DNA of 13,996 nt from a virus. Of the stretch, positions 569-10,327 are shown piece by piece. The stretch lies in the UHGV virus genome UHGV-0150765; one strand, given 5' to 3'. Within the stretch, counting starts at the first letter, position 1. Every line of letters begins with the position of its first letter. The notes under the pieces are model-generated. The model was not told where the DNA came from and did no database searches. It saw only the letters and a list, made by a program, of their open reading frames with translations. Both the position numbers and the translations under genes were made by a program.

Positions 569-1570
569 TTACTTAATTAACTGTAAAGCTTGTTCAAGAC
601 GATCCAGGCGATTAACAGATTCTTCCCAAATCCTTTTAGCCTGCTCATATTCTTTCTGTGCTTTATTAGAAATTTCTAGAACTTCTTTATAAGCTTTTTC
701 CAGTGCAATAACTTCTGGACGAATTTCTACCGGTTCAGGCGAATCGTCAAGACATTCCATTAGTTCCTCAAGGGTAGTTTCTTCTTTAGGAGTATTCACA
801 ATTTCATCACATTTTTGTTGGTAAATTTCTTTATCAGTCGGTGAGTACGCGCACTTTACTTCACGAAGGCTAATTACAATTTTATATCCTTCCCAACCGC
901 ATATATTCTTAAAAGGATATGTATGAATATTTTCTACTGTTTCCATACAAAGTAATGCGGTCTCTAATTGACGAGTTATAGTGCTAGCAATTGAGAAAAA
1001 TTTATTAATATTCTTTTGGTTAGTTTCTGGTGTAAAAAATTCATAATTCACAAAAATAGCTGCTTTATTTTTATCAAGTTCATATTCTTTTATGATAATC
1101 ATATCAGAAGCCAAAGGATGAATTTGACGATAATCGCCATAACATAATTTAGAAGCTGATTTTAGAATTTGCTTCTTAAAAAGTCTGAAATTACTAATCC
1201 AACGACGAGTAAAAATGTTCTCAGGGTCTTCTTTGACATTAAGATGATAAGAATTAACATCACCGAACCAATTGTATCCTACTACATCTTTAGTTCGTTT
1301 AATTTCTTTCCCAAAATTACCAAGAATATCCCGATTAACCAAATATGAAAGAAGACGAGACTCTTTAAAGGTTTTCTTGATAACATCTTTATCTACACGG
1401 CTAGAAATTTTACGAATTTCATGAATAAATTTAGCAGAAGAAACAATACTTGCATCAACACTATTGAGCCATTGATTGATAATAGAAAGAACGCTATTTT
1501 GGCCAAACATCGGTATAGCTTTATCATCAATAACTCTATTGAATGATTTGATATATTCGTTACGAGTCAT
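569..1570 (-). CDS. hypothetical protein, 333 aa, paralog family member with coiled-coil-like C-terminus
   Basis: Track ORF 569..1621 starts at an in-frame TTG inside the promoter. First ATG at 1570-1568 has GGAG 6 nt upstream. LFKKQILKSASKL aligns with LFRKQLKQILSTASRL of 1628..2647. C-terminal 60 aa are E/K/Q/L-rich. Confidence 0.75.
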   Translation of the reverse strand: MTRNEYIKSFNRVIDDKAIPMFGQNSVLSIINQWLNSVDASIVSSAKFIHEIRKISSRVDKDVIKKTFKESRLLSYLVNRDILGNFGKEIKRTKDVVGYNWFGDVNSYHLNVKEDPENIFTRRWISNFRLFKKQILKSASKLCYGDYRQIHPLASDMIIIKEYELDKNKAAIFVNYEFFTPETNQKNINKFFSIASTITRQLETALLCMETVENIHTYPFKNICGWEGYKIVISLREVKCAYSPTDKEIYQQKCDEIVNTPKEETTLEELMECLDDSPEPVEIRPEVIALEKAYKEVLEISNKAQKEYEQAKRIWEESVNRLDRLEQALQLIK

Positions 1571-1598
1571 AATAATCTCCTCAGTAGAAAGTAAGAAC

Positions 1599-1628
1599 AT
1601 TATACCACATCCTTGTGGCAAAGTAAAC
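1599..1628 (-). promoter_or_regulatory. T4-type early promoter for 569..1570
   Basis: Minus strand GTTTAC (1628-1623), 18-nt spacer ending in TGG, TATAAT (1604-1599). The -35 overlaps the stop codon of the upstream gene. Confidence 0.7.
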
Positions 1629-2647
1629 TAGTTCAGTGCATTTAGTGCATTGTTCAGTTTAGAACGTTGCTTTGTCAGATTTTGAACCCTTGACTGAGCT
1701 TGTTCTAACACCTTTTCAGCTTCTAGCACTTCATTGGTCGCTTTAATGAGTTCAGCATCTACTGCCTTAAGAGACTTCTCAATCGCGTCAGCGTGCCATT
1801 TTTCTACAGGTTTAAAATTTGAATTTTCAGTAGGAAGAAAACTCACTTTATTAAGTTTACATGCATCTATATTGCTTGAGCTATACATCCAAAATTTAGG
1901 ATCGTTTGATGAGTAATTAGATAAATTTAAGATATCTTGCACTTCCTGCTTTTTCTCTTGAACAACTTCGTCCTTTCTCAAAAATTCATATTTAAATGAA
2001 ACGACCATATCAAGTTCATACGTTGTTGTGTCTAATTTAAATCGCTCAAAACGAGGTAAAATCTTAGAATGAACACTAGCAACAACATCCATATACTTAA
2101 ATGCTTCTGTCAACTGTGATTTAAGGCATTCACAAATTGAAAGAGAATTTTTTGTGTTAGGTTTAAAGCTAATTCGTGCAGTTCTATTATTTTCTTTTAG
2201 CGGTCTTACTTCCATCTGGAGAGTATAACCGTCAAATTTCAGATTCTTTAAGTTAATATCAGAACCTTTTAATCGACTAGCAGTAGACAAAATTTGCTTT
2301 AATTGTTTACGGAATAGAGCAATAAATCTCCATTCAAGACGATAATGATTTGGATTAAAAAATCCAGTTGATAGATCGATCTTACTTTGACCGACGCCTC
2401 GAACAAATAGAGGATTTTTATAATCAATAGTTTTACAGAAATCGGTGAGCTGCTCACGAGCAGTCATTTGTGTAATATACCCTGCTTCGTTAAAATGACG
2501 TAACCATTCACTGCTATTCATATACTTAAAGTGAATGGAACTATTAACTCTATCAGGGTCTAAATTATTTTGACACAAAAATGTCATAACATCACGAGTA
2601 TAGCTGGCATTACGAACCATATCTTCAATTTGAGAACGAGTTTTCAT
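1628..2647 (-). CDS. hypothetical protein, 339 aa, paralog family member with coiled-coil-like C-terminus
   Basis: ATG at 2647-2645 with AAGGAA SD. Long ORF. Collinear similarity to 569..1570 and to the partial CDS at 1..514. Confidence 0.8.
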   Translation of the reverse strand: MKTRSQIEDMVRNASYTRDVMTFLCQNNLDPDRVNSSIHFKYMNSSEWLRHFNEAGYITQMTAREQLTDFCKTIDYKNPLFVRGVGQSKIDLSTGFFNPNHYRLEWRFIALFRKQLKQILSTASRLKGSDINLKNLKFDGYTLQMEVRPLKENNRTARISFKPNTKNSLSICECLKSQLTEAFKYMDVVASVHSKILPRFERFKLDTTTYELDMVVSFKYEFLRKDEVVQEKKQEVQDILNLSNYSSNDPKFWMYSSSNIDACKLNKVSFLPTENSNFKPVEKWHADAIEKSLKAVDAELIKATNEVLEAEKVLEQAQSRVQNLTKQRSKLNNALNALN

Positions 2648-2655
2648 AGTGTTCC

Positions 2656-3546
2656 TTAAGATTTAAGTAAATCAACAATTTTAATTAACTTTTCACGCTC
2701 AGATTTAGCTTTACTACTCAATCCAGATAGTCTGAAAATTTCATCATCATATTGTTGAATAGAAATATTCAGCTCTTCAATCTGCTTATTAAAATAATCA
2801 ATTTGCTCAGAATGTTTTTCGTTACTACGAACTGGCGCAGGTTTTGTAGGCAATTTAGTTGAACTGGATTCATCCGGGCGATAAATTAAAATACAACTTG
2901 AACCAATCGGACATTTTGCCCCAGATGAATATTCTAATGTTCCAGCTTCTTTTAAAACTTCAAAAGCTAAACAGAGATGATGCCCCATATTAACATAATC
3001 TGTAGAGCGAGCTCTGACGTAATAATCATCTCCACGAGTGCTAAATTTAAAGCATTTAAGGTCTTCTGTATTATTAGTTTTAAAAATCATTTGTTTATCT
3101 AGACCTTTAGCTAATCGAGCGCCTAATGCTAATAATCGTCGTTGATTTTCCCACAAATCCGCAATCATTTGGTCGAATGATAATTTCGGCATTAGTCGGC
3201 CATAAAGGTCATATCCTTTATTATAATTACGAAGGATTTCACTCGCGTTAATACGAGACAACGCTCCAATTTTATTAAGGGCTTTCATGATGCGATTAGA
3301 TAAACTCATTCCAGACCCATTTGTTCGCTGTAAATGTTTTTCTAATCCAAACCCAATATCAACTTTAAATTTATCTAAAATTTCAGCATGAACATCTCTG
3401 TCAATAACATTCAAATCCAAAGTTGGGTTAAATCTATGAAAAAAATTATCTGGCTCTCCACGACGAAATACAGTCCATTCATTCATCATTTTTTTATTAA
3501 CTAAAGATTTAATTACTGCGTTGACATTATTAATTACTACTGACAT
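2656..3546 (-). CDS. hypothetical protein, 296 aa, probable distant member of the same paralog family
   Basis: Track ORF starts at TTG (3567). First ATG at 3546-3544 has GAGGAAA SD. Weak similarity to neighbours (FNP motif; LAxxLxxxAxxLAKG region) and the same E/K-rich helical C-terminus. Confidence 0.7.
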   Translation of the reverse strand: MSVVINNVNAVIKSLVNKKMMNEWTVFRRGEPDNFFHRFNPTLDLNVIDRDVHAEILDKFKVDIGFGLEKHLQRTNGSGMSLSNRIMKALNKIGALSRINASEILRNYNKGYDLYGRLMPKLSFDQMIADLWENQRRLLALGARLAKGLDKQMIFKTNNTEDLKCFKFSTRGDDYYVRARSTDYVNMGHHLCLAFEVLKEAGTLEYSSGAKCPIGSSCILIYRPDESSSTKLPTKPAPVRSNEKHSEQIDYFNKQIEELNISIQQYDDEIFRLSGLSSKAKSEREKLIKIVDLLKS

Positions 3547-3553
3547 ATTTTCC

Positions 3554-3961
3554 TCACTCAATTTCAATTTTACTAAATATACAGAATATGATGGAAAAGA
3601 CTATATAAGCACCACACACAGATTGAACTAATACCATTCCAAAGAACCAGACAATATTATCAAACCATGTCTGTTTTACGTCGAAAGGACGTAAACTTAC
3701 AGTAATATTATCTCCTTTTTCTATTGAAGAATACATCTCCGGTGAAATATATTCGCTAAATCTATAACCGTCTTTGAGTTCATATACGGCAATAAACGAT
3801 AAACTAGACCCCTTTCCTTGAGTTCCTGTAAGGGTATTAACTACAGCAACATCATAATCTTTATAATGCATATAATCATTAATAGCATAATAACCATATG
3901 CAACTACTACACATAAACAACATATCAATAAATTCAATCTTTTAATTATCAACTGTTTCAT
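3554..3961 (-). CDS. small membrane protein, 135 aa, hydrophobic segments at both ends
   Basis: ATG at 3961-3959. N-terminal LNLLICCLCVVVAYGYYAI and C-terminal IVWFFGMVLVQSVCGAYIVFSIIFCIF look like TM helices. Stop is 7 nt from the next start. Confidence 0.7.
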   Translation of the reverse strand: MKQLIIKRLNLLICCLCVVVAYGYYAINDYMHYKDYDVAVVNTLTGTQGKGSSLSFIAVYELKDGYRFSEYISPEMYSSIEKGDNITVSLRPFDVKQTWFDNIVWFFGMVLVQSVCGAYIVFSIIFCIFSKIEIE

Positions 3962-5008: not shown

Positions 5009-5977
5009 TTATTTCAGAAGAGTAACCTCAGCGATTTCTTCCCAACCGTTTTTGTCGGTCATAATAAAGTCAGCAAGATAAAGTGCAGTACGCAGTGAAA
5101 CATTGCGTAAACGGTTAACATTGACTTTCATCCATGATAATGCTTTATAAGTTTCTTCATCAGAAAGACCGCGTTTTTGCATCATGTCAGTTGAAAGAAT
5201 AACATCTTCAACCCTGACCATAATTTCTTCATTAGTGTGAACACCCAAATCTAAATAAACTGAGCGGGACACTAATGCTTGTAAATGTGGAGCAAGTTTA
5301 GTACCACGGTCTAATTCGCGGTCAATATCAACGTTTGTGATAAAAACAATCGTTCCTTTAAATTCAAACTCACGCTCAATGCCTTTTTCTTCTAAGTAAG
5401 AAGATGCAGTGCTCCAGCAGACTTTACGGGTCTCTCCAGTGTCCAGAGCAGCTTTCAGAAGATTAAGAATGTCCATATCAGAGAAAACATCCACATCATC
5501 AATCAAAAGGACAGAATTCTCTTCACGATTATTCCAGAGCTGTTCATAAAGACCGATACCAGAGATTTTACCATTAATGCTTTTATACTCAATGTATCCA
5601 ATATCATTTGCTTTATTTAAAGCTTTATCTAAAGAATACGTTTTACCAATACCTGCCGCACCAGAGATAATTAATGAACGAATATTTCCGTTAATAATAC
5701 CATTCGTCATCATTCCCATAACATTAAATCTTTTATTAATGCGGGTTTTCATATCTTCATATGATTCTTTAACTTCTTCAACTTTTACACCATCATATGA
5801 AATGTCTGATTTGTAAACCCAAACACCGCGACGTTTACCGTCAATTTCAACAAAAACTTTACCATCTCCTTGTGCATCTACTGGTGCATTATCAGGGAAC
5901 CATTCACCTAAGAACTCAAAAGTTCCAGAGATTTCTTTACCGAAGTAGATACCCTTATTGATAGTTACAGTTTTCAT
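5009..5977 (-). CDS. P-loop NTPase, Walker A GAAGIGKT and Walker B VLLIDDVD, 322 aa
   Basis: Track ORF 5009..6043 starts at a TTG inside the promoter. First ATG at 5977-5975 has GGAG SD. Walker A and B motifs read directly from the translation. N-terminal domain of about 110 aa has no recognised motif. Confidence 0.8.
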   Translation of the reverse strand: MKTVTINKGIYFGKEISGTFEFLGEWFPDNAPVDAQGDGKVFVEIDGKRRGVWVYKSDISYDGVKVEEVKESYEDMKTRINKRFNVMGMMTNGIINGNIRSLIISGAAGIGKTYSLDKALNKANDIGYIEYKSINGKISGIGLYEQLWNNREENSVLLIDDVDVFSDMDILNLLKAALDTGETRKVCWSTASSYLEEKGIEREFEFKGTIVFITNVDIDRELDRGTKLAPHLQALVSRSVYLDLGVHTNEEIMVRVEDVILSTDMMQKRGLSDEETYKALSWMKVNVNRLRNVSLRTALYLADFIMTDKNGWEEIAEVTLLK

Positions 5978-6011
5978 TTTATTCTCCAAATCCGTATCAG
6001 TTGATAGTTGT

Positions 6012-6041
6012 ATAGTACCATAAAGCTTTATGCTTGTAAAC
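6012..6041 (-). promoter_or_regulatory. T4-type early promoter for the P-loop ATPase gene, with conserved downstream box
   Basis: Minus strand GTTTAC (6041-6036), 18-nt spacer, TGGTACTATACAACTATCAAC. Lies directly downstream of the terminator at 6062..6090. Confidence 0.7.
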
Positions 6042-6061
6042 AACTTTGTGAAAAATTTTTG

Positions 6062-6090
6062 AAATAAAAAAGGGAGCCCGAAGGCTCCCT
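6062..6090 (-). terminator. rho-independent terminator with UUCG tetraloop, after the NTase gene
   Basis: Minus-sense RNA: AGGGAGCC-UUCG-GGCUCCCU (8-bp GC-rich stem) followed by UUUUUUAUUU. Begins 2 nt after the stop codon. Confidence 0.85.
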
Positions 6091-6091
6091 A

Positions 6092-7105
6092 TCATTTATA
6101 ATAACTTCGGTGGTTTTCAAGATAGACCTTCTCAAGGAAGTCATCCCAGAAACTCATGTCTACTTTTTGCTGCATACCGTTCTTAGAAGCTTCAGTAGAT
6201 GCTGCTTCTACTTGATCGACCACATCTTCCAAAAACTCTTGAACCGTTTTAAATGGATGTTTACCCAACTTCACGTCGAGAATAAATGGAGCATCTTGGA
6301 GTGGATAAATCAAGTCGCCAGTTTTGTAAATTTCCAATAGTTGAAGTCCACCACGACAAGCATGACTCAGAGCTTTCCAGTCAATACCTTCATTGGCTTC
6401 AGCCTTACGAGCACGTTCACCATATTCAGCATCTAATTTGTTCAGTGACTGCTTAAGCTCAATAAGAGAAAGCGTTGTCTGATATTTACGACCCAACACA
6501 GTGTAGAACGTTTGTGGGCCTGTTTTCTCATGATTATGGAACACCCATTCACAGAATTCGTTTTCTGGAAGACGATGCTTAATATCTTCAACTTTAGTGC
6601 GACGCTGCTTAATAGAACCATCTTCTTGGTAATCAACCCATTGCTCAGGGATTTGATTAACTACTTTCAATACATCACGTAATGCAGCCAAACGAGAACC
6701 CTTGACACCGTATTTAGAAGCTTGCTTACGGACATATCCTAAATATGATTTCATGTTAGTCGTATAAAAACGAGAACGGTTGTCTTGAATAAACTTCCAC
6801 ACATCAGGCAAATCAGATTTAACCACTAGTTCAGGTGGAGTGTGAAGCATATCTAATGCTACAGTTTCACCATCTGCTGCTAATTTAAAGAAATATTTAA
6901 GACTGTATAGTTCATGGTCAATATCATCTTTAGTGTTTTTAGATGATGTGTTGTTAGTGTTTTTACTCATGTGCTCTTTGACATTTCCGATAAGAATATC
7001 GCGAGCAGGAGGAACAAAGATTTCTTTAAAATCTACATCAGATTCTGGGGTAGAAGTTCCATAAAGATGACTACCAAAATAGCTTTTCATTACTGTTTTC
7101 ATCAT
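6092..7105 (-). CDS. pol-beta superfamily nucleotidyltransferase-like protein, 337 aa
   Basis: N-terminal FGSHLYGTSTPESDVDF fits the minimal NTase signature G-S-x3-G-x5-S-D-x-D. A possible third acidic residue lies in VALDMLH. ATG at 7105 overlaps the upstream stop (ATGA). A UUCG terminator follows immediately. Confidence 0.75.
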   Translation of the reverse strand: MMKTVMKSYFGSHLYGTSTPESDVDFKEIFVPPARDILIGNVKEHMSKNTNNTSSKNTKDDIDHELYSLKYFFKLAADGETVALDMLHTPPELVVKSDLPDVWKFIQDNRSRFYTTNMKSYLGYVRKQASKYGVKGSRLAALRDVLKVVNQIPEQWVDYQEDGSIKQRRTKVEDIKHRLPENEFCEWVFHNHEKTGPQTFYTVLGRKYQTTLSLIELKQSLNKLDAEYGERARKAEANEGIDWKALSHACRGGLQLLEIYKTGDLIYPLQDAPFILDVKLGKHPFKTVQEFLEDVVDQVEAASTEASKNGMQQKVDMSFWDDFLEKVYLENHRSYYK

Positions 7106-7575
7106 TCAGCCTTATATTCAATAACAGGACATACTTTAGCTTTACGAGCTTTTAAAAATTCAACGATAATCGATTTCTTGGGTTGAATAGGAGGTAAACC
7201 TTTATACGCCCTATCAATATTTTCTATGTGTAAAGCATAATCCTTTTTCCATTTATAATCTTTATATTTTTCATGCAAATGTGCAGGAATAACAAATGAA
7301 CCAATAATAAGTAAAACAAGCAAAATGGCAAGTATAAATGCTGATGGAATAAGAGTCCATAAACTACCAAAAATAAGCCATTTCTGTATGATTTCTGCGC
7401 AGATGATAGTTAGACCTGCGAGTATAGTACATCCGAAAAAAGAAACGAAAAATGTAGGGATAACAATAGACCAAAAGTATGCACACAGTGTCTTAGGTCG
7501 TTTCCATTCGTCGTTAAACAGTTTGAATAATTTATAGTGCCAAGAGTTTTCATTAATAACCATAATTATAATCAT
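7102..7575 (-). CDS. integral membrane protein, 157 aa, at least two TM segments
   Basis: Hydrophobic stretches FWSIVIPTFFVSFFGCTILAGLTIICAEI and LIPSAFILAILLVLLIIGSFVI. ATGA overlaps with the genes on both sides. A second in-frame ATG at 7563 is an alternative start. Confidence 0.75.
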   Translation of the reverse strand: MIIIMVINENSWHYKLFKLFNDEWKRPKTLCAYFWSIVIPTFFVSFFGCTILAGLTIICAEIIQKWLIFGSLWTLIPSAFILAILLVLLIIGSFVIPAHLHEKYKDYKWKKDYALHIENIDRAYKGLPPIQPKKSIIVEFLKARKAKVCPVIEYKAE

Positions 7576-8093
7576 CCTTTCATTGAAGGTGTAACGTATG
7601 TTAAATACTTAATCATAGCCTCAGCTTCTGATTTTGACAATGAAATTTCTTCACCGTTTTGGCGAATAGAAACAAAATCTGGATGACGGTCACCGCCAGC
7701 CTTTAAAACACACATGTAAGTATCAACTTCGCCTTCAATATTTGAAATGATTGAAGCAGTTCCACATGAATGTGGTTGTTGATAAACTAATACAGCTTTT
7801 CTTCCACCGTTTGACTGTTCATAAACTTTTAACACATCAAACAAATCACTTCTTTTATCAATAGCTAAGATGTTGTTTTCATCTTCAATATTAAATCCTT
7901 CGGATACTTCATAAAGTGTCACCCATAAATCACCAATATCAATAACAGCGTTCACTTTTCCATGACTTTCAAGAGCATTACAAATTTTCTTAATTTCATC
8001 ATAACTCATTTTAATAATATCATCTCCTTGAATAAGGAAGATGTCATTTTTAAATTCAACACGAATTAAACCACTTCCACTTGAAATAAACAT
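7572..8093 (-). CDS. hypothetical protein, 173 aa, paralog of the adjacent 185-aa protein
   Basis: ATG at 8093-8091 with GAGGAAA SD. Shares GFNIE and a C-terminal SxxEAxAxxxYLxxVxPxM motif with 8100..8657. Confidence 0.8.
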   Translation of the reverse strand: MFISSGSGLIRVEFKNDIFLIQGDDIIKMSYDEIKKICNALESHGKVNAVIDIGDLWVTLYEVSEGFNIEDENNILAIDKRSDLFDVLKVYEQSNGGRKAVLVYQQPHSCGTASIISNIEGEVDTYMCVLKAGGDRHPDFVSIRQNGEEISLSKSEAEAMIKYLTYVTPSMKG

Positions 8094-8099
8094 ATTTCC

Positions 8100-8657
8100 T
8101 CACTTTGAAATCATAGTTGGAATGACAGAATCAAGATAAGTCTTTAGCGCAATAGCTTCGTCTTTGGTAAATGTGACAATATGTGATCGAAAATCGTCAA
8201 TTTGGCGAATAGTTAAGACATCTCCATCTTCATAACATTTTGATACGTTTAAAACAGTTTCATCATTCTGACTGCAAGCGTTAGTAATAATAGCATTGCA
8301 ATTTTTAAGCCATTTTAAACTATGTTTTCTTTCATTAGAATAATAAAAATATTTAATCTTATCTATAAAACTATCCCAATGGATAACTGATAAACACATT
8401 GACTCGCTTTCAATATTAAATCCTGGGCATGAAGAATAAAAATGAACTTTATTCTCATCATTGATGCTTACAATTTTATCAGTATAAGAATTTTCAATTT
8501 GGGTTAAATGAATAATTTCGTTAGGCGTAAAATATAGCATATCGTCTTCTTGTGTCAAACGATACATATTATTTACTTTTTCTATAGCCAATTCACCAAA
8601 AAGTGAACTAACTTCTAATACTAATCGTTTCATATTGATTCTCTTCGACTCACTCAC
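8100..8657 (-). CDS. hypothetical protein, 185 aa (or 177 aa from ATG 8633), paralog of 7572..8093
   Basis: GTG at 8657 has AAGGAG 9 nt upstream; an in-frame ATG at 8633 has only a weak SD. C-terminal FTKDEAIALKTYLDSVIPTM matches LSKSEAEAMIKYLTYVTPSM of the neighbour. Confidence 0.75.
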   Translation of the reverse strand: MSESKRINMKRLVLEVSSLFGELAIEKVNNMYRLTQEDDMLYFTPNEIIHLTQIENSYTDKIVSINDENKVHFYSSCPGFNIESESMCLSVIHWDSFIDKIKYFYYSNERKHSLKWLKNCNAIITNACSQNDETVLNVSKCYEDGDVLTIRQIDDFRSHIVTFTKDEAIALKTYLDSVIPTMISK

Positions 8658-8659
8658 AA

Positions 8660-8764
8660 TTACATACTCCTTTGAATAATATCAATAATGTTGTTCACCA
8701 GATTATAAGTAAACATTGGGTAATTATATTGAATCATCACATACACAACAAACAAAACTTTCAT
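8660..8764 (-). CDS. possible 34-aa hydrophobic leader peptide (MKVLFVVYVMIQYNYPMFTYNLVNNIIDIIQRSM)
   Basis: ATG at 8764-8762 has AAGGAG 6 nt upstream and sits just downstream of the early promoter at 8793..8822. Too short for the ORF track. Its stop overlaps the SD of the next gene. Confidence 0.25.
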   Translation of the reverse strand: MKVLFVVYVMIQYNYPMFTYNLVNNIIDIIQRSM

Positions 8765-8792
8765 TCTCTTCTCCTTAACAGTTGACAAGATT

Positions 8793-8822
8793 ACTATAAC
8801 ATAACCTTGCCAACTTGTAAAC
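8793..8822 (-). promoter_or_regulatory. T4-type early promoter for the 185/173/membrane/NTase operon
   Basis: Minus strand GTTTAC (8822-8817), 18-nt spacer, TATAGT (8798-8793), then AAGGAG 17 nt downstream. Confidence 0.6.
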
Positions 8823-8824
8823 CA

Positions 8825-8998
8825 TTAAATGGTGTTTTCAATAAAATTCTGAAGCTTTGTGTGAGCATCAACCATGATTTTCATTTCTTCCTTTGCGAAA
8901 GCTGTACCTCTTTCTCGAGCAGAATACTCATAGTCAGAAACTGCATTAGCATATTCTTCAATTAGCTTCATTAAAAACATCTGCTTTTCAGTTTTCAT
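8825..8998 (-). CDS. hypothetical small protein, 57 aa (MKTEKQMFLMKLIEEYANAVSDYEYSARERGTAFAKEEMKIMVDAHTKLQNFIENTI)
   Basis: Hand-translated; below the 60-aa track cutoff. ATG at 8998-8996 has the same GGTGGAATAATG context as the start at 9367. Fills an otherwise empty 160-bp gap. Confidence 0.45.
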   Translation of the reverse strand: MKTEKQMFLMKLIEEYANAVSDYEYSARERGTAFAKEEMKIMVDAHTKLQNFIENTI

Positions 8999-9182
8999 TA
9001 TTCCACCTAATCATTTCAAGATATTGAACTAACTTAGCTTTGGATTTGTCCAAATCCCTTTTAGCTGCTTCTATACCGTCGTATGAATATCCTTCACAAT
9101 GCTCAACTGCTAATTGATATGAATCTATTTCAATATCATGCGCTAATTTAATGATTTTTTCAAACTGTTCGCGTGTTAGCAT
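8988..9182 (-). CDS. hypothetical small protein, 64 aa
   Basis: ATG at 9182-9180. Tightly packed in a run of small early ORFs. Predicted helical. Confidence 0.6.
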   Translation of the reverse strand: MLTREQFEKIIKLAHDIEIDSYQLAVEHCEGYSYDGIEAAKRDLDKSKAKLVQYLEMIRWNNEN

Positions 9183-9184
9183 AC

Positions 9185-9367
9185 TTACACTCTCGTATTA
9201 TGATCGATAATTTCATCAAGAAACATATCTAACGCTTCTACAGCATTATCAACTTTAGCTTCAAATTCTTCAATACCTGATAAGGCAAAGTTAATGCGTT
9301 CCTCATCTGCTTTACGAATTAAAGCTACCAATTCCTTAATTTTATCCGCTTGTTCGATACTAATCAT
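9185..9367 (-). CDS. hypothetical small protein, 60 aa
   Basis: Track ORF starts at GTG 9403. The ATG at 9367-9365 has a GGTGG SD and shares one base with the upstream stop (TAATG), so that start is preferred. Confidence 0.6.
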   Translation of the reverse strand: MISIEQADKIKELVALIRKADEERINFALSGIEEFEAKVDNAVEALDMFLDEIIDHNTRV

Positions 9368-9555
9368 TATTCCACCACATATGAAAGAGAGAATATTGCA
9401 CACGCCATGTGAGTTGCAACTTCATCACACATATTATAACGTTTCTTAAGAAGTTCTACAAGTTCTTCACTAGTAACTTCATCCATGTCGACGAAAAAAT
9501 CACCATTAATGATGACGTAGATATTTCCTTCTTGATTAAGTGCTTCAATTTTCAT
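9367..9555 (-). CDS. hypothetical small protein, 62 aa, first gene after the early promoter
   Basis: ATG at 9555-9553 with GAGGAG SD 6 nt upstream. Promoter at 9584..9613. Confidence 0.65.
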
Positions 9556-9583
9556 GATGTTCTCCTCTTTATCCGATAGTTGT

Positions 9584-9613
9584 ATAGTACCACAGCTTAA
9601 ACGGAAAGTAAAC
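9584..9613 (-). promoter_or_regulatory. T4-type early promoter for the small-ORF run 9555..8825, with conserved downstream box
   Basis: Minus strand GTTTAC (9613-9608), 18-nt spacer, GTGGTACTATACAACTATC. Lies directly downstream of the terminator at 9622..9646. Confidence 0.7.
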
Positions 9614-9621
9614 CGGTAAAA

Positions 9622-9646
9622 TGAAAAAAGTCTCCCGAAGGAGACT
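9622..9646 (-). terminator. rho-independent terminator with UUCG tetraloop, after the rI.-1-like gene
   Basis: Minus-sense RNA: AGUCUCC-UUCG-GGAGACU (7-bp stem) followed by UUUUUUCA. Begins 5 nt after the stop codon. Confidence 0.8.
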
Positions 9647-9650
9647 AATG

Positions 9651-10037
9651 TTATTCGAGGGAAAGAAGATACTTACTCTGGTAAAACATTCCAGTAATAT
9701 CATCTATCGTGCTTTGGATGGCTGGAGGCATTTCTTTATAAATGCTGTTAGATTGGTCTAGTATGCGATCAATCATTTTAATTGTGTCGGTAGGAAGTTT
9801 ACTGGCATCTGGAATTGAAGGTGTGTATTTTCTACCAGAATACCCCAAATACTGCTCACCAAATTTATCAATCAAATTTGGCAACTCGGAAAAAATAAAA
9901 TCGTATGCTTTGTGTCTAGCATAACTTTTAGTTTCAAAATGCGCAGAATGAAAATAAGCTTGTGCAGCCATTAATAAACCTAAGTATTCATCTGCCTTTG
10001 AAGGTTTTCCACTTTGTGAAAAGTCGCTGAATTTCAT
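9651..10037 (-). CDS. hypothetical protein, 128 aa, in the position of T4 rI.-1
   Basis: ATG at 10037-10035 overlaps the rI stop (ATGA). A UUCG terminator follows at 9622..9646. No motif recognised. Confidence 0.7.
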
Positions 10038-10327
10038 TCAGTCTCCAATTTAATTTTCATAATTCTAGCGTATGATTGTGCCATCTCCGCGCCTCGCTCT
10101 ATACATTCAAAATCAGAAGAGCACGGGTCATTTTTATAGGTCGTTCTCATAAAACTATAGAATTGTTCAGACGATTCTACGCTTTTATTTTCAAAAAGCA
10201 TATAAACGTGCCTAATACCAGATTCCATAAATTTATCAAAATGAGGATCGACATTCGCTTCAATCGATGGAGATAAAACAAATGACAATCCTAGCATGGC
10301 AAATAGTGCCGTTGCTTTTAAGGCCAT
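10034..10327 (-). CDS. rI: lysis-inhibition regulator RI (antiholin), 97 aa
   Basis: MALKATALFAMLGLSFVLSPS... has an N-terminal signal-anchor and a periplasmic domain; length and sequence match my recollection of T4 RI. ATG at 10327 with AGGAGG SD. Lies next to tk as in T4. Confidence 0.85.
   Translation of the reverse strand: MALKATALFAMLGLSFVLSPSIEANVDPHFDKFMESGIRHVYMLFENKSVESSEQFYSFMRTTYKNDPCSSDFECIERGAEMAQSYARIMKIKLETE

Follow-up and report, generated by a model that had tools for sequence, protein, structure and literature searches.

RNA repair was discovered in bacteriophage T4, where Pnk and RNA ligase act against the anticodon nuclease PrrC, and RloC-type nucleases have been proposed to defeat this repair by removing the wobble nucleotide too. 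A candidate source of the missing nucleotide is the RlaP family (PF10127) of Pol-beta nucleotidyltransferases (NTases). Two of its Pseudomonas members, PfRlaP and PaRlaP, were characterised by Carruthers, Fatma and Huang (bioRxiv, December 2025). Both put one or two nucleoside monophosphates, from any nucleoside triphosphate (NTP) or dATP, on RNA 3'-OH ends with a preference for Mn2+, and both are inactive on DNA and protein. They favour the 5' half of a cleaved-tRNA mimic, and they increase aminoacylation of a ligated tRNA missing one anticodon-loop nucleotide. The crystal structure of PfRlaP consists of an N-terminal NTase and a C-terminal helical domain that form a cleft, with the last helix packed onto the NTase (Carruthers et al. 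2025). Phage RlaP NTases had been predicted to put back, before ligation, nucleotides removed by nucleases such as RloC, a prediction set beside the action of CCA-adding enzymes on 3' ends and the restoration of nucleotides at 5' ends (Iyer et al. 2021). The T4 nrdC.11 orthologs were listed as COG3541 nucleotidyltransferases already by Nolan et al. 2006, and T4 NrdC.11 was named as an RlaP in 2025 (Carruthers et al. 2025). Here we analyse a 13,996-nucleotide stretch of the virus genome UHGV-0150765, referred to as the window, in which the gene at 6092..7105 on the minus strand encodes, with high confidence, a protein of the NrdC.11-type branch of the RlaP family.

The open reading frame delimited in an earlier note on this DNA is real: the list of open reading frames and the translation give a complete coding sequence of 337 uninterrupted codons plus a stop, running from the ATG at 7105 to the TGA at 6094-6092. 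That note named no strand; a plus-strand reading of 6092-7105 is ruled out by a frame packed with stops, and all substantial open reading frames of the window lie on the minus strand. Most public annotations of the NTase start at the second ATG (336 amino acids), and the first ATG overlaps the stop codon of an upstream gene for a 157-residue membrane protein, as ATGATGA. Tequatrovirus genomes, for example those of Shigella phage Sf21 and Escherichia phage HP3, share 97.5% identity with the region. Because the gene order (regB, vs.1, vs, tk.4, tk, rI, rI.-1, mobD.x, this gene, nrdC.10, nrdC.9 and onward) matches the T4 reference annotation, we identify the gene as the T4 nrdC.11 ortholog. By tblastn, its product shares 98.8% identity with the T4 protein and 100% with its counterpart in Yersinia phage PST. 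The protein was detected in 1,565 phage records, most of them from Straboviridae of Escherichia, Klebsiella, Aeromonas, Acinetobacter, and Vibrio. T4 NrdC.11 (NP_049709.1, 'uncharacterized 38.9 kDa protein'), which NCBI labels 'nucleotidyltransferase', has the same length and occupies the same site between the mobD region and nrdC.10, whereas its upstream neighbour is the mobD homing endonuclease in place of the 157-residue membrane protein. The Sf21 protein gp93 is annotated likewise, with the note 'pfam10127'. Many GenBank and UniRef records call this NTase 'thioredoxin' or 'HNH homing endonuclease', a widespread annotation error apparently inherited from the gene names nrdC.11 and mobD.

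A Pfam profile search upheld the NTase call of the earlier note: RlaP PF10127 was matched with 44.7 bits, where the cut-off is 23 (E=1.7e-11), and PHROG 388 'nucleotidyltransferase' was matched over the full length at E=1.3e-136. All of the 120 closest database relatives (120/120) are already annotated PF10127. When 1.84 billion cluster representatives (50% identity clusters) were searched exhaustively with HMMER, 3,427 clusters reached E<=1e-3, and 825 of them reached E<=1e-30; the listed ones are nearly all full length, at ~310-360 amino acids, and the whole architecture therefore constitutes a large, coherent family. Searches of NCBIfam and PADLOC gave no significant match and no defence-system, toxin-family, or curated-family assignment. 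CCA-adding tRNA nucleotidyltransferases are also template-independent enzymes of the Pol-beta superfamily, theirs being the rebuilding of tRNA 3' ends, but their PolyA_pol, PolyA_pol_RNAbd, and HD head/body domains are not matched in NrdC.11. The protein has no Pfam match to the CCA-enzyme families PF01743 or PF12627, whereas genuine CCA enzymes encoded beside its homologs do match PF01743/PF12627, and it falls outside the CCA-adding/poly(A) polymerase class II enzymes.

The GS and SDxD elements in which the earlier note had recognised a minimal NTase active site (GSHLYGTSTPESDVDF, residues 11-26, 7028..7075, minus strand) are genuine, the PF10127 and PHROG 388 matches lying far beyond chance, and the motif G11-S12 ... 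D23-x-D25 aligns with the GS/DxD of MntA. Conservation was assessed in 147 sequences, comprising the query and 146 full-length cluster representatives. Seven positions are 99-100% conserved (G11, S12, Y15, G16, S22, D23, and D25), which includes the catalytic aspartates on whose conservation the NTase call depended, and N57, D61, D63, G79, and D85 are 95-99% conserved. G11-S12/D23-x-D25 is invariant in alignment A2, and it is identical in the bacterial and fusion homologs described below. In the C-terminal part of the protein, Y124, Q128, Y132, R138, G229, R231, D242, K244, H248, R251, P268, K279, and G281 form a set conserved at 90-100%. The conserved residues of the 147-sequence set are identical in 12 bacterial homologs. 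A degenerate or non-catalytic remnant with a fortuitous motif match would be compatible with a gene that is dispensable in the laboratory and with a Pfam profile that matches half of the protein. We give this explanation almost no credence, because all catalytic residues, together with ~25 other positions, stay 90-100% conserved in thousands of sequences whose identity falls as low as 27%, and because the fold is predicted confidently; the conservation effectively refutes it.

Two further acidic positions deserve mention. The D61-I-D63 element (6917..6925, minus strand; D61 95% and D63 97% conserved) is on a predicted beta-strand, residues 62-68. D63 is most likely the third metal-binding carboxylate, because position 63 is D or E in every homolog seen (E in the consensus of the marine-phage clade) and the modelled strand aligns with the acidic strand of MntA. 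D85 (6851..6853, minus strand), in the helix that follows the core (VALDMLH), is 97% conserved and invariant in A2; when paired by eye with an alignment of canonical RlaPs (A3), it appears to match the E of their 'NPxLLEWL' motif.

An AlphaFold2 (AF2) model was obtained from an alignment of 87 sequences, in which T4-like proteins are joined by members of a marine-phage clade that share just 27-35% identity with the query. The model has a mean predicted local distance difference test score (pLDDT) of 83.4. Its alpha/beta core extends to residue ~130; beyond the core come a helix (135-150), a beta-rich segment (155-209), another helix (214-227), and a helical region (230-336). We divide the protein into an N-terminal Pol-beta NTase core (residues 1-132, 6710..7105), a clade-specific alpha/beta insert (residues ~139-228, 6422..6691), and a C-terminal helical domain (residues 229-337, 6095..6421), all on the minus strand. 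The earlier note had described everything beyond the NTase as one large uncharacterised C-terminal domain; it splits into the insert and the helical bundle. The bundle is conserved, of the kind that accompanies many NTases, and bears the signature G229-x-R231 ... D242-W-K244-x-x-S-H248-x-x-R251 ... P268 ... K279. The insert alone folds confidently (pLDDT 88.1, predicted template modelling score 0.77) as a helix, a beta-hairpin, a short helix, a three-stranded sheet, and a helix, and is without structural relatives. Neither the insert alone nor the C-terminal segment alone has a meaningful Pfam match, a match to DUF1409 being short and below threshold.

The top matches of the model in a Foldseek search of the Protein Data Bank (PDB) have weak E-values (~1e-2), and all are Pol-beta NTases: ANT(4')/KNTase, Hailong HalB, LinB, and MNT. 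The NTase fold is thus borne out by the AF2 model and the structural matches together. The single-sequence search of the PDB found nothing, the profile search found a marginal match to MntA (E=0.16) and a spurious coiled-coil match only, and no RlaP crystal structure was among the matches of the single-sequence, profile, and Foldseek searches. From the conserved residues and the modelled fold we predict with high confidence that the protein is an active Pol-beta-fold nucleotidyltransferase.

The structural matches bring in other acceptors than RNA. Kanamycin nucleotidyltransferase ANT(4'), LinB, and ANT(3'')(9), which use small-molecule acceptors, are 10-11% identical to the NTase, and neither a sequence-level relationship to antibiotic NTases nor a resistance context was found. 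The best structural match is Hailong HalB (PDB 9dbh), and an enzyme of this sort would make short (deoxy)oligonucleotides de novo, perhaps as decoys or as replacements for a host immune signal destroyed by the phage. We regard such an activity as very unlikely. HalB is 16% identical to the protein, a match at the level of a generic NTase-plus-helical-domain fold; at 217 amino acids it is without the insert domain that the NrdC.11 type has, and PfRlaP does not extend DNA (Carruthers et al. 2025). No HalA-like, CBASS, or other effector, defence, or signalling partner is encoded near the NTase in the window or in the homolog loci examined, and PADLOC gave no match to defence NTases (2023 database, which may lack Hailong). 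The protein does not group with the HalB/CD-NTase class, its resemblance to HalB being structural only.

It would be equally surprising if the acceptor were a protein, with the enzyme AMPylating or otherwise nucleotidylating a host or phage protein as MntA does its HEPN toxin. MntA is the closest PDB sequence match, there is a trace match to NCBIfam MntA_antitoxin, the GS...DxD...acidic-strand core of MNT/MntA can be aligned with that of NrdC.11, and the C-terminal bundle resembles HEPN-type folds. The sequence matches to MntA are nevertheless far below threshold (13.4 bits against a cut-off of 60 for MntA_antitoxin). MNTs are proteins of ~100-140 amino acids that have HEPN-toxin partners and AMPylate proteins, whereas NrdC.11, at 337 amino acids, is ~2.5x the MNT size and has no adjoining HEPN gene in the window; we do not place it among the MNT/MntA antitoxins. 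E. coli proteins are not labelled by PfRlaP (Carruthers et al. 2025), and the contexts of the homologs are those of RNA repair.

Canonical RlaP, represented by the Pseudomonas rtcB-rlaP-rtcA operon and by cluster 1a of the PF10127 sequence-similarity network, belongs to the same Pfam family as the NrdC.11 type. In both, the N-terminal NTase combines GS and DxD with a third acidic strand and an acidic helix motif, and both are associated with RNA ligases and repair genes; a helical C-terminal domain, which in the NrdC.11 type is predicted, probably also belongs to both. The alignable stretch comprises ~130 N-terminal residues, and the NrdC.11 type is larger, at ~330 amino acids versus ~215-285 for the canonical RlaPs examined.

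To place the NrdC.11 type in its genomic setting, we examined 50 bacterial loci with full-length homologs, from a scan of one genome per species; neighbouring genes were clustered, checked by Pfam, and recounted by tblastn over the 50 loci. The homologs, from Alphaproteobacteria, Desulfovibrio, Synergistaceae, and Campylobacterota, are mostly 26-38% identical to the query (52-53% for two contigs of metagenome-assembled genomes). RtcB is encoded in 6/50 loci, the RtcR regulator in 3/50, and a Pnkp-type kinase-phosphatase-ligase in 3/50, two of which have it directly upstream. HD-containing CCA-adding enzymes are encoded directly upstream of the NrdC.11-type gene in 6/50, and Thg1-like enzymes occur in 3/50. 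A canonical full-length RlaP is immediately downstream of, or fused to, the NrdC.11-type NTase in 30/50 loci; among the remaining 20, many are on short or truncated contigs. Adjacent pairs occur in loci L010-L013, L015, L016, L019-L023, L026, and L028, among others. The fusion polypeptides, of ~620-660 amino acids, are found in Desulfovibrio and Synergistaceae (L030:1374-3305, L033:5920-7866, L036:3184-5178, L044:4502-6376, and L046:1519-3393), and their N-terminal NrdC.11-type module retains every catalytic residue. Since both types are adjacent or fused in the same bacteria, they are paralogs, presumably with different roles and not redundant.

Among phages, the unrelated Vibrio phage 11895-B1 has a cassette (L003:1805-5921) of an AAA_33 P-loop kinase, a CCA-adding enzyme, a small 'hydrolase' without a Pfam match, and the NrdC.11-type NTase. 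Its CCA gene is intron-containing, in two joined pieces with an HNH endonuclease open reading frame between them, and genes for tRNA-Tyr and tRNA-Pro lie ~5 kb from the cassette. Only 80 phage records contain canonical RlaP, most of them from jumbo phages; it stands alone there, at times 1.4-3.4 kb from an RNA ligase. None of these phages is T4-like, and T4-like phages therefore carry the NrdC.11-type paralog alone. Association with RNA-repair genes is a property of the NrdC.11 clade at these loci, not of the window itself.

The same chemistry could serve offence or regulation, by untemplated additions to the 3' ends of host or phage RNA that block tRNA aminoacylation like MenT-type toxins or mark transcripts for decay or stabilisation. 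In favour of such RNA tailing, PfRlaP uses any NTP to label numerous cellular RNAs, and a nucleotide added at an undamaged break lowers the amount of functional tRNA (Carruthers et al. 2025). The gene is also among the T4 early host-takeover genes, and regB, which encodes an mRNA endonuclease, belongs to the same 14-kb stretch. We consider this unlikely, given that the bacterial homologs are in repair operons (RtcB/RtcR, Pnkp, CCA-adding, and Thg1-like) and not in toxin or toxin-antitoxin contexts, and that PADLOC and NCBIfam gave no toxin-family match. Context supports none of the four alternatives, whether RNA tailing, HalB-like synthesis, protein nucleotidylation, or a remnant.

The earlier note had counted addition of nucleotides to RNA 3' ends, for example in tRNA repair, among the possible functions, and both RlaP membership and the context of the homologs support it. 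Building on the established family membership, fold, catalytic-residue conservation, and RNA-repair context of the homologs, we consider RlaP-type, template-independent nucleotide addition to 3'-OH ends, serving tRNA repair after attack by host ribotoxins, to be the probable function. The repair role follows from the biochemistry of distant paralogs and from guilt by association, and it is by such analogy that we infer the substrate, how many nucleotides it receives, and an anti-ribotoxin role in T4-like phages. Through G11-S12, D23, D25, and D63 the enzyme would bind an NTP together with two divalent metal ions (probably Mn2+). A broken or trimmed RNA, in the most plausible case a tRNA, would be held by the helical C-terminal domain and perhaps also by the clade-specific insert, and would then receive one or a few untemplated nucleotides on its 3'-OH. 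During infection its partners would be the end-healing and sealing enzymes of the phage, T4 Pnk and the RNA ligases, which are encoded elsewhere in the genome. Nucleotides lost to host ribotoxins that cut and excise, such as RloC, would be replaced, so that ligation yields a functional tRNA.

Several observations weigh against this repair role. The characterised activity comes from PfRlaP and PaRlaP only, not from cluster 5 or NrdC.11; T4 NrdC.11 is in cluster 5 of the PF10127 sequence-similarity network, not 1a, and was called an RlaP 'of unknown function' (Carruthers et al. 2025). The NrdC.11 clade is very divergent from the characterised RlaPs: the PF10127 match spans residues 7-135 only, that is, profile positions 23-142 of 249 in the N-terminal half, and hhalign against canonical RlaP aligns the GS...DxD region alone, at 24-45% probability. 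A low-confidence hhalign path pairs the C-terminal motif with K119-R126, which disagrees with the by-eye pairing of K244-R251. The NrdC.11 type carries a ~90-residue alpha/beta segment that appears to be an insert relative to canonical RlaP, and the product of HalB, the best structural match, is DNA oligomers controlling the HalA channel, not repaired RNA. There is no RNA ligase, kinase, or tRNA gene within the 14-kb window, and the neighbours in T4-like phages are unrelated early genes. The nrdC.11-mobD.3 fragment is deletable from T4; the phage survives its loss, and the function is therefore conditional at best. Given the conserved pairing with canonical RlaP in bacteria, the activity may also differ from that of PfRlaP.

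Divergence, insert, and pairing together warn that substrate or nucleotide specificity may differ, and NrdC.11 activity should therefore not be assumed equal to that of PfRlaP. A more specific proposal is doubtful: the NrdC.11 type could be a second, mechanistically distinct RlaP paralog that in bacteria is the obligate partner of canonical RlaP, with labour split as in CC-adding and A-adding enzymes and with the insert as an RNA-recognition or measuring module, and T4-like phages would have taken this half alone against nucleotide-excising anticodon nucleases such as RloC. If true, it would resolve a long-standing question, namely whether 'repair-proof' tRNA lesions can be overcome by phage repair. 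A conserved T4 enzyme that restores a nucleotide would be the missing counter-move to RloC, a role directly testable with existing T4 genetics. The gene annotation, the RlaP family, and the hypothesised role are already published, and the importance of the present analysis is accordingly modest; it adds the insert domain, the strong divergence of the T4 branch, and the systematic pairing or fusion with canonical RlaP in bacteria.

Within the window, no functional partner of the NTase is evident. A strong intrinsic-terminator-like hairpin (6071..6090, minus strand), detected by a terminator scan and by direct reading of the sequence, lies one base past the nrdC.11 stop codon; its 8-bp stem and UUCG loop (AGGGAGCC-UUCG-GGCUCCCU) are followed by the T-run TTTTTATTTC, which suggests that the NTase gene ends a transcription unit or bears a stabilising 3' hairpin. 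The longest open reading frame of nrdC.10 (5009-6043, minus strand, TTG start, 344 amino acids) encodes a P-loop/AAA ATPase with weak matches to AAA_14 and nSTAND. A promoter-like site, TTTACA-17-TACTAT with a TG, lies inside it at 6040-6012, and the T4 annotation of nrdC.10 has 325 amino acids; the true start is probably further downstream than the TTG. Because the terminator and the promoter-like site lie between the two genes, nrdC.10 is probably a transcription unit separate from the NTase. As a partner of the NTase, nrdC.10 was rejected on this arrangement and on its distribution, since only T4, Sf21, and Acinetobacter phage AbTZA1 have it close to the NTase, and the five other loci, of more distant phages, do not. 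The small open reading frames directly downstream of the NTase in seven distant phages were likewise rejected, being mutually unrelated.

Upstream, the T4 mobD homing-endonuclease gene is not present in the window. In its place are the genes for the predicted 157-residue membrane protein (7102-7575) and for a 173-residue protein (7572-8093), the latter a paralog of the adjoining mobD.1-like gene (8100-8657), all three on the minus strand. The 173-residue protein and the mobD.1-like product both have T4_y05I N- and C-terminal 'putative transcription factor' domains. In T4-like phages of Aeromonas and Klebsiella, nicotinamide adenine dinucleotide (NAD)-salvage genes are found a few kb from the NTase, encoding a NadR-like nicotinamide mononucleotide adenylyltransferase/Nudix protein and a nicotinamide or nicotinate phosphoribosyltransferase (L005:3382-4440 and 8700-10178; L057:2099-3160; L059:7472-8914); this may be coincidental synteny of the early region or a link to NAD-dependent RNA-end chemistry. 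At the far end of the window, 569-3567 (minus strand) holds three successive open reading frames of 300-350 amino acids at the T4 nrdC.4, nrdC.5, and nrdC.6 positions; two are without a Pfam family, and the one at the nrdC.5 position (1628-2647) belongs to DUF7235.
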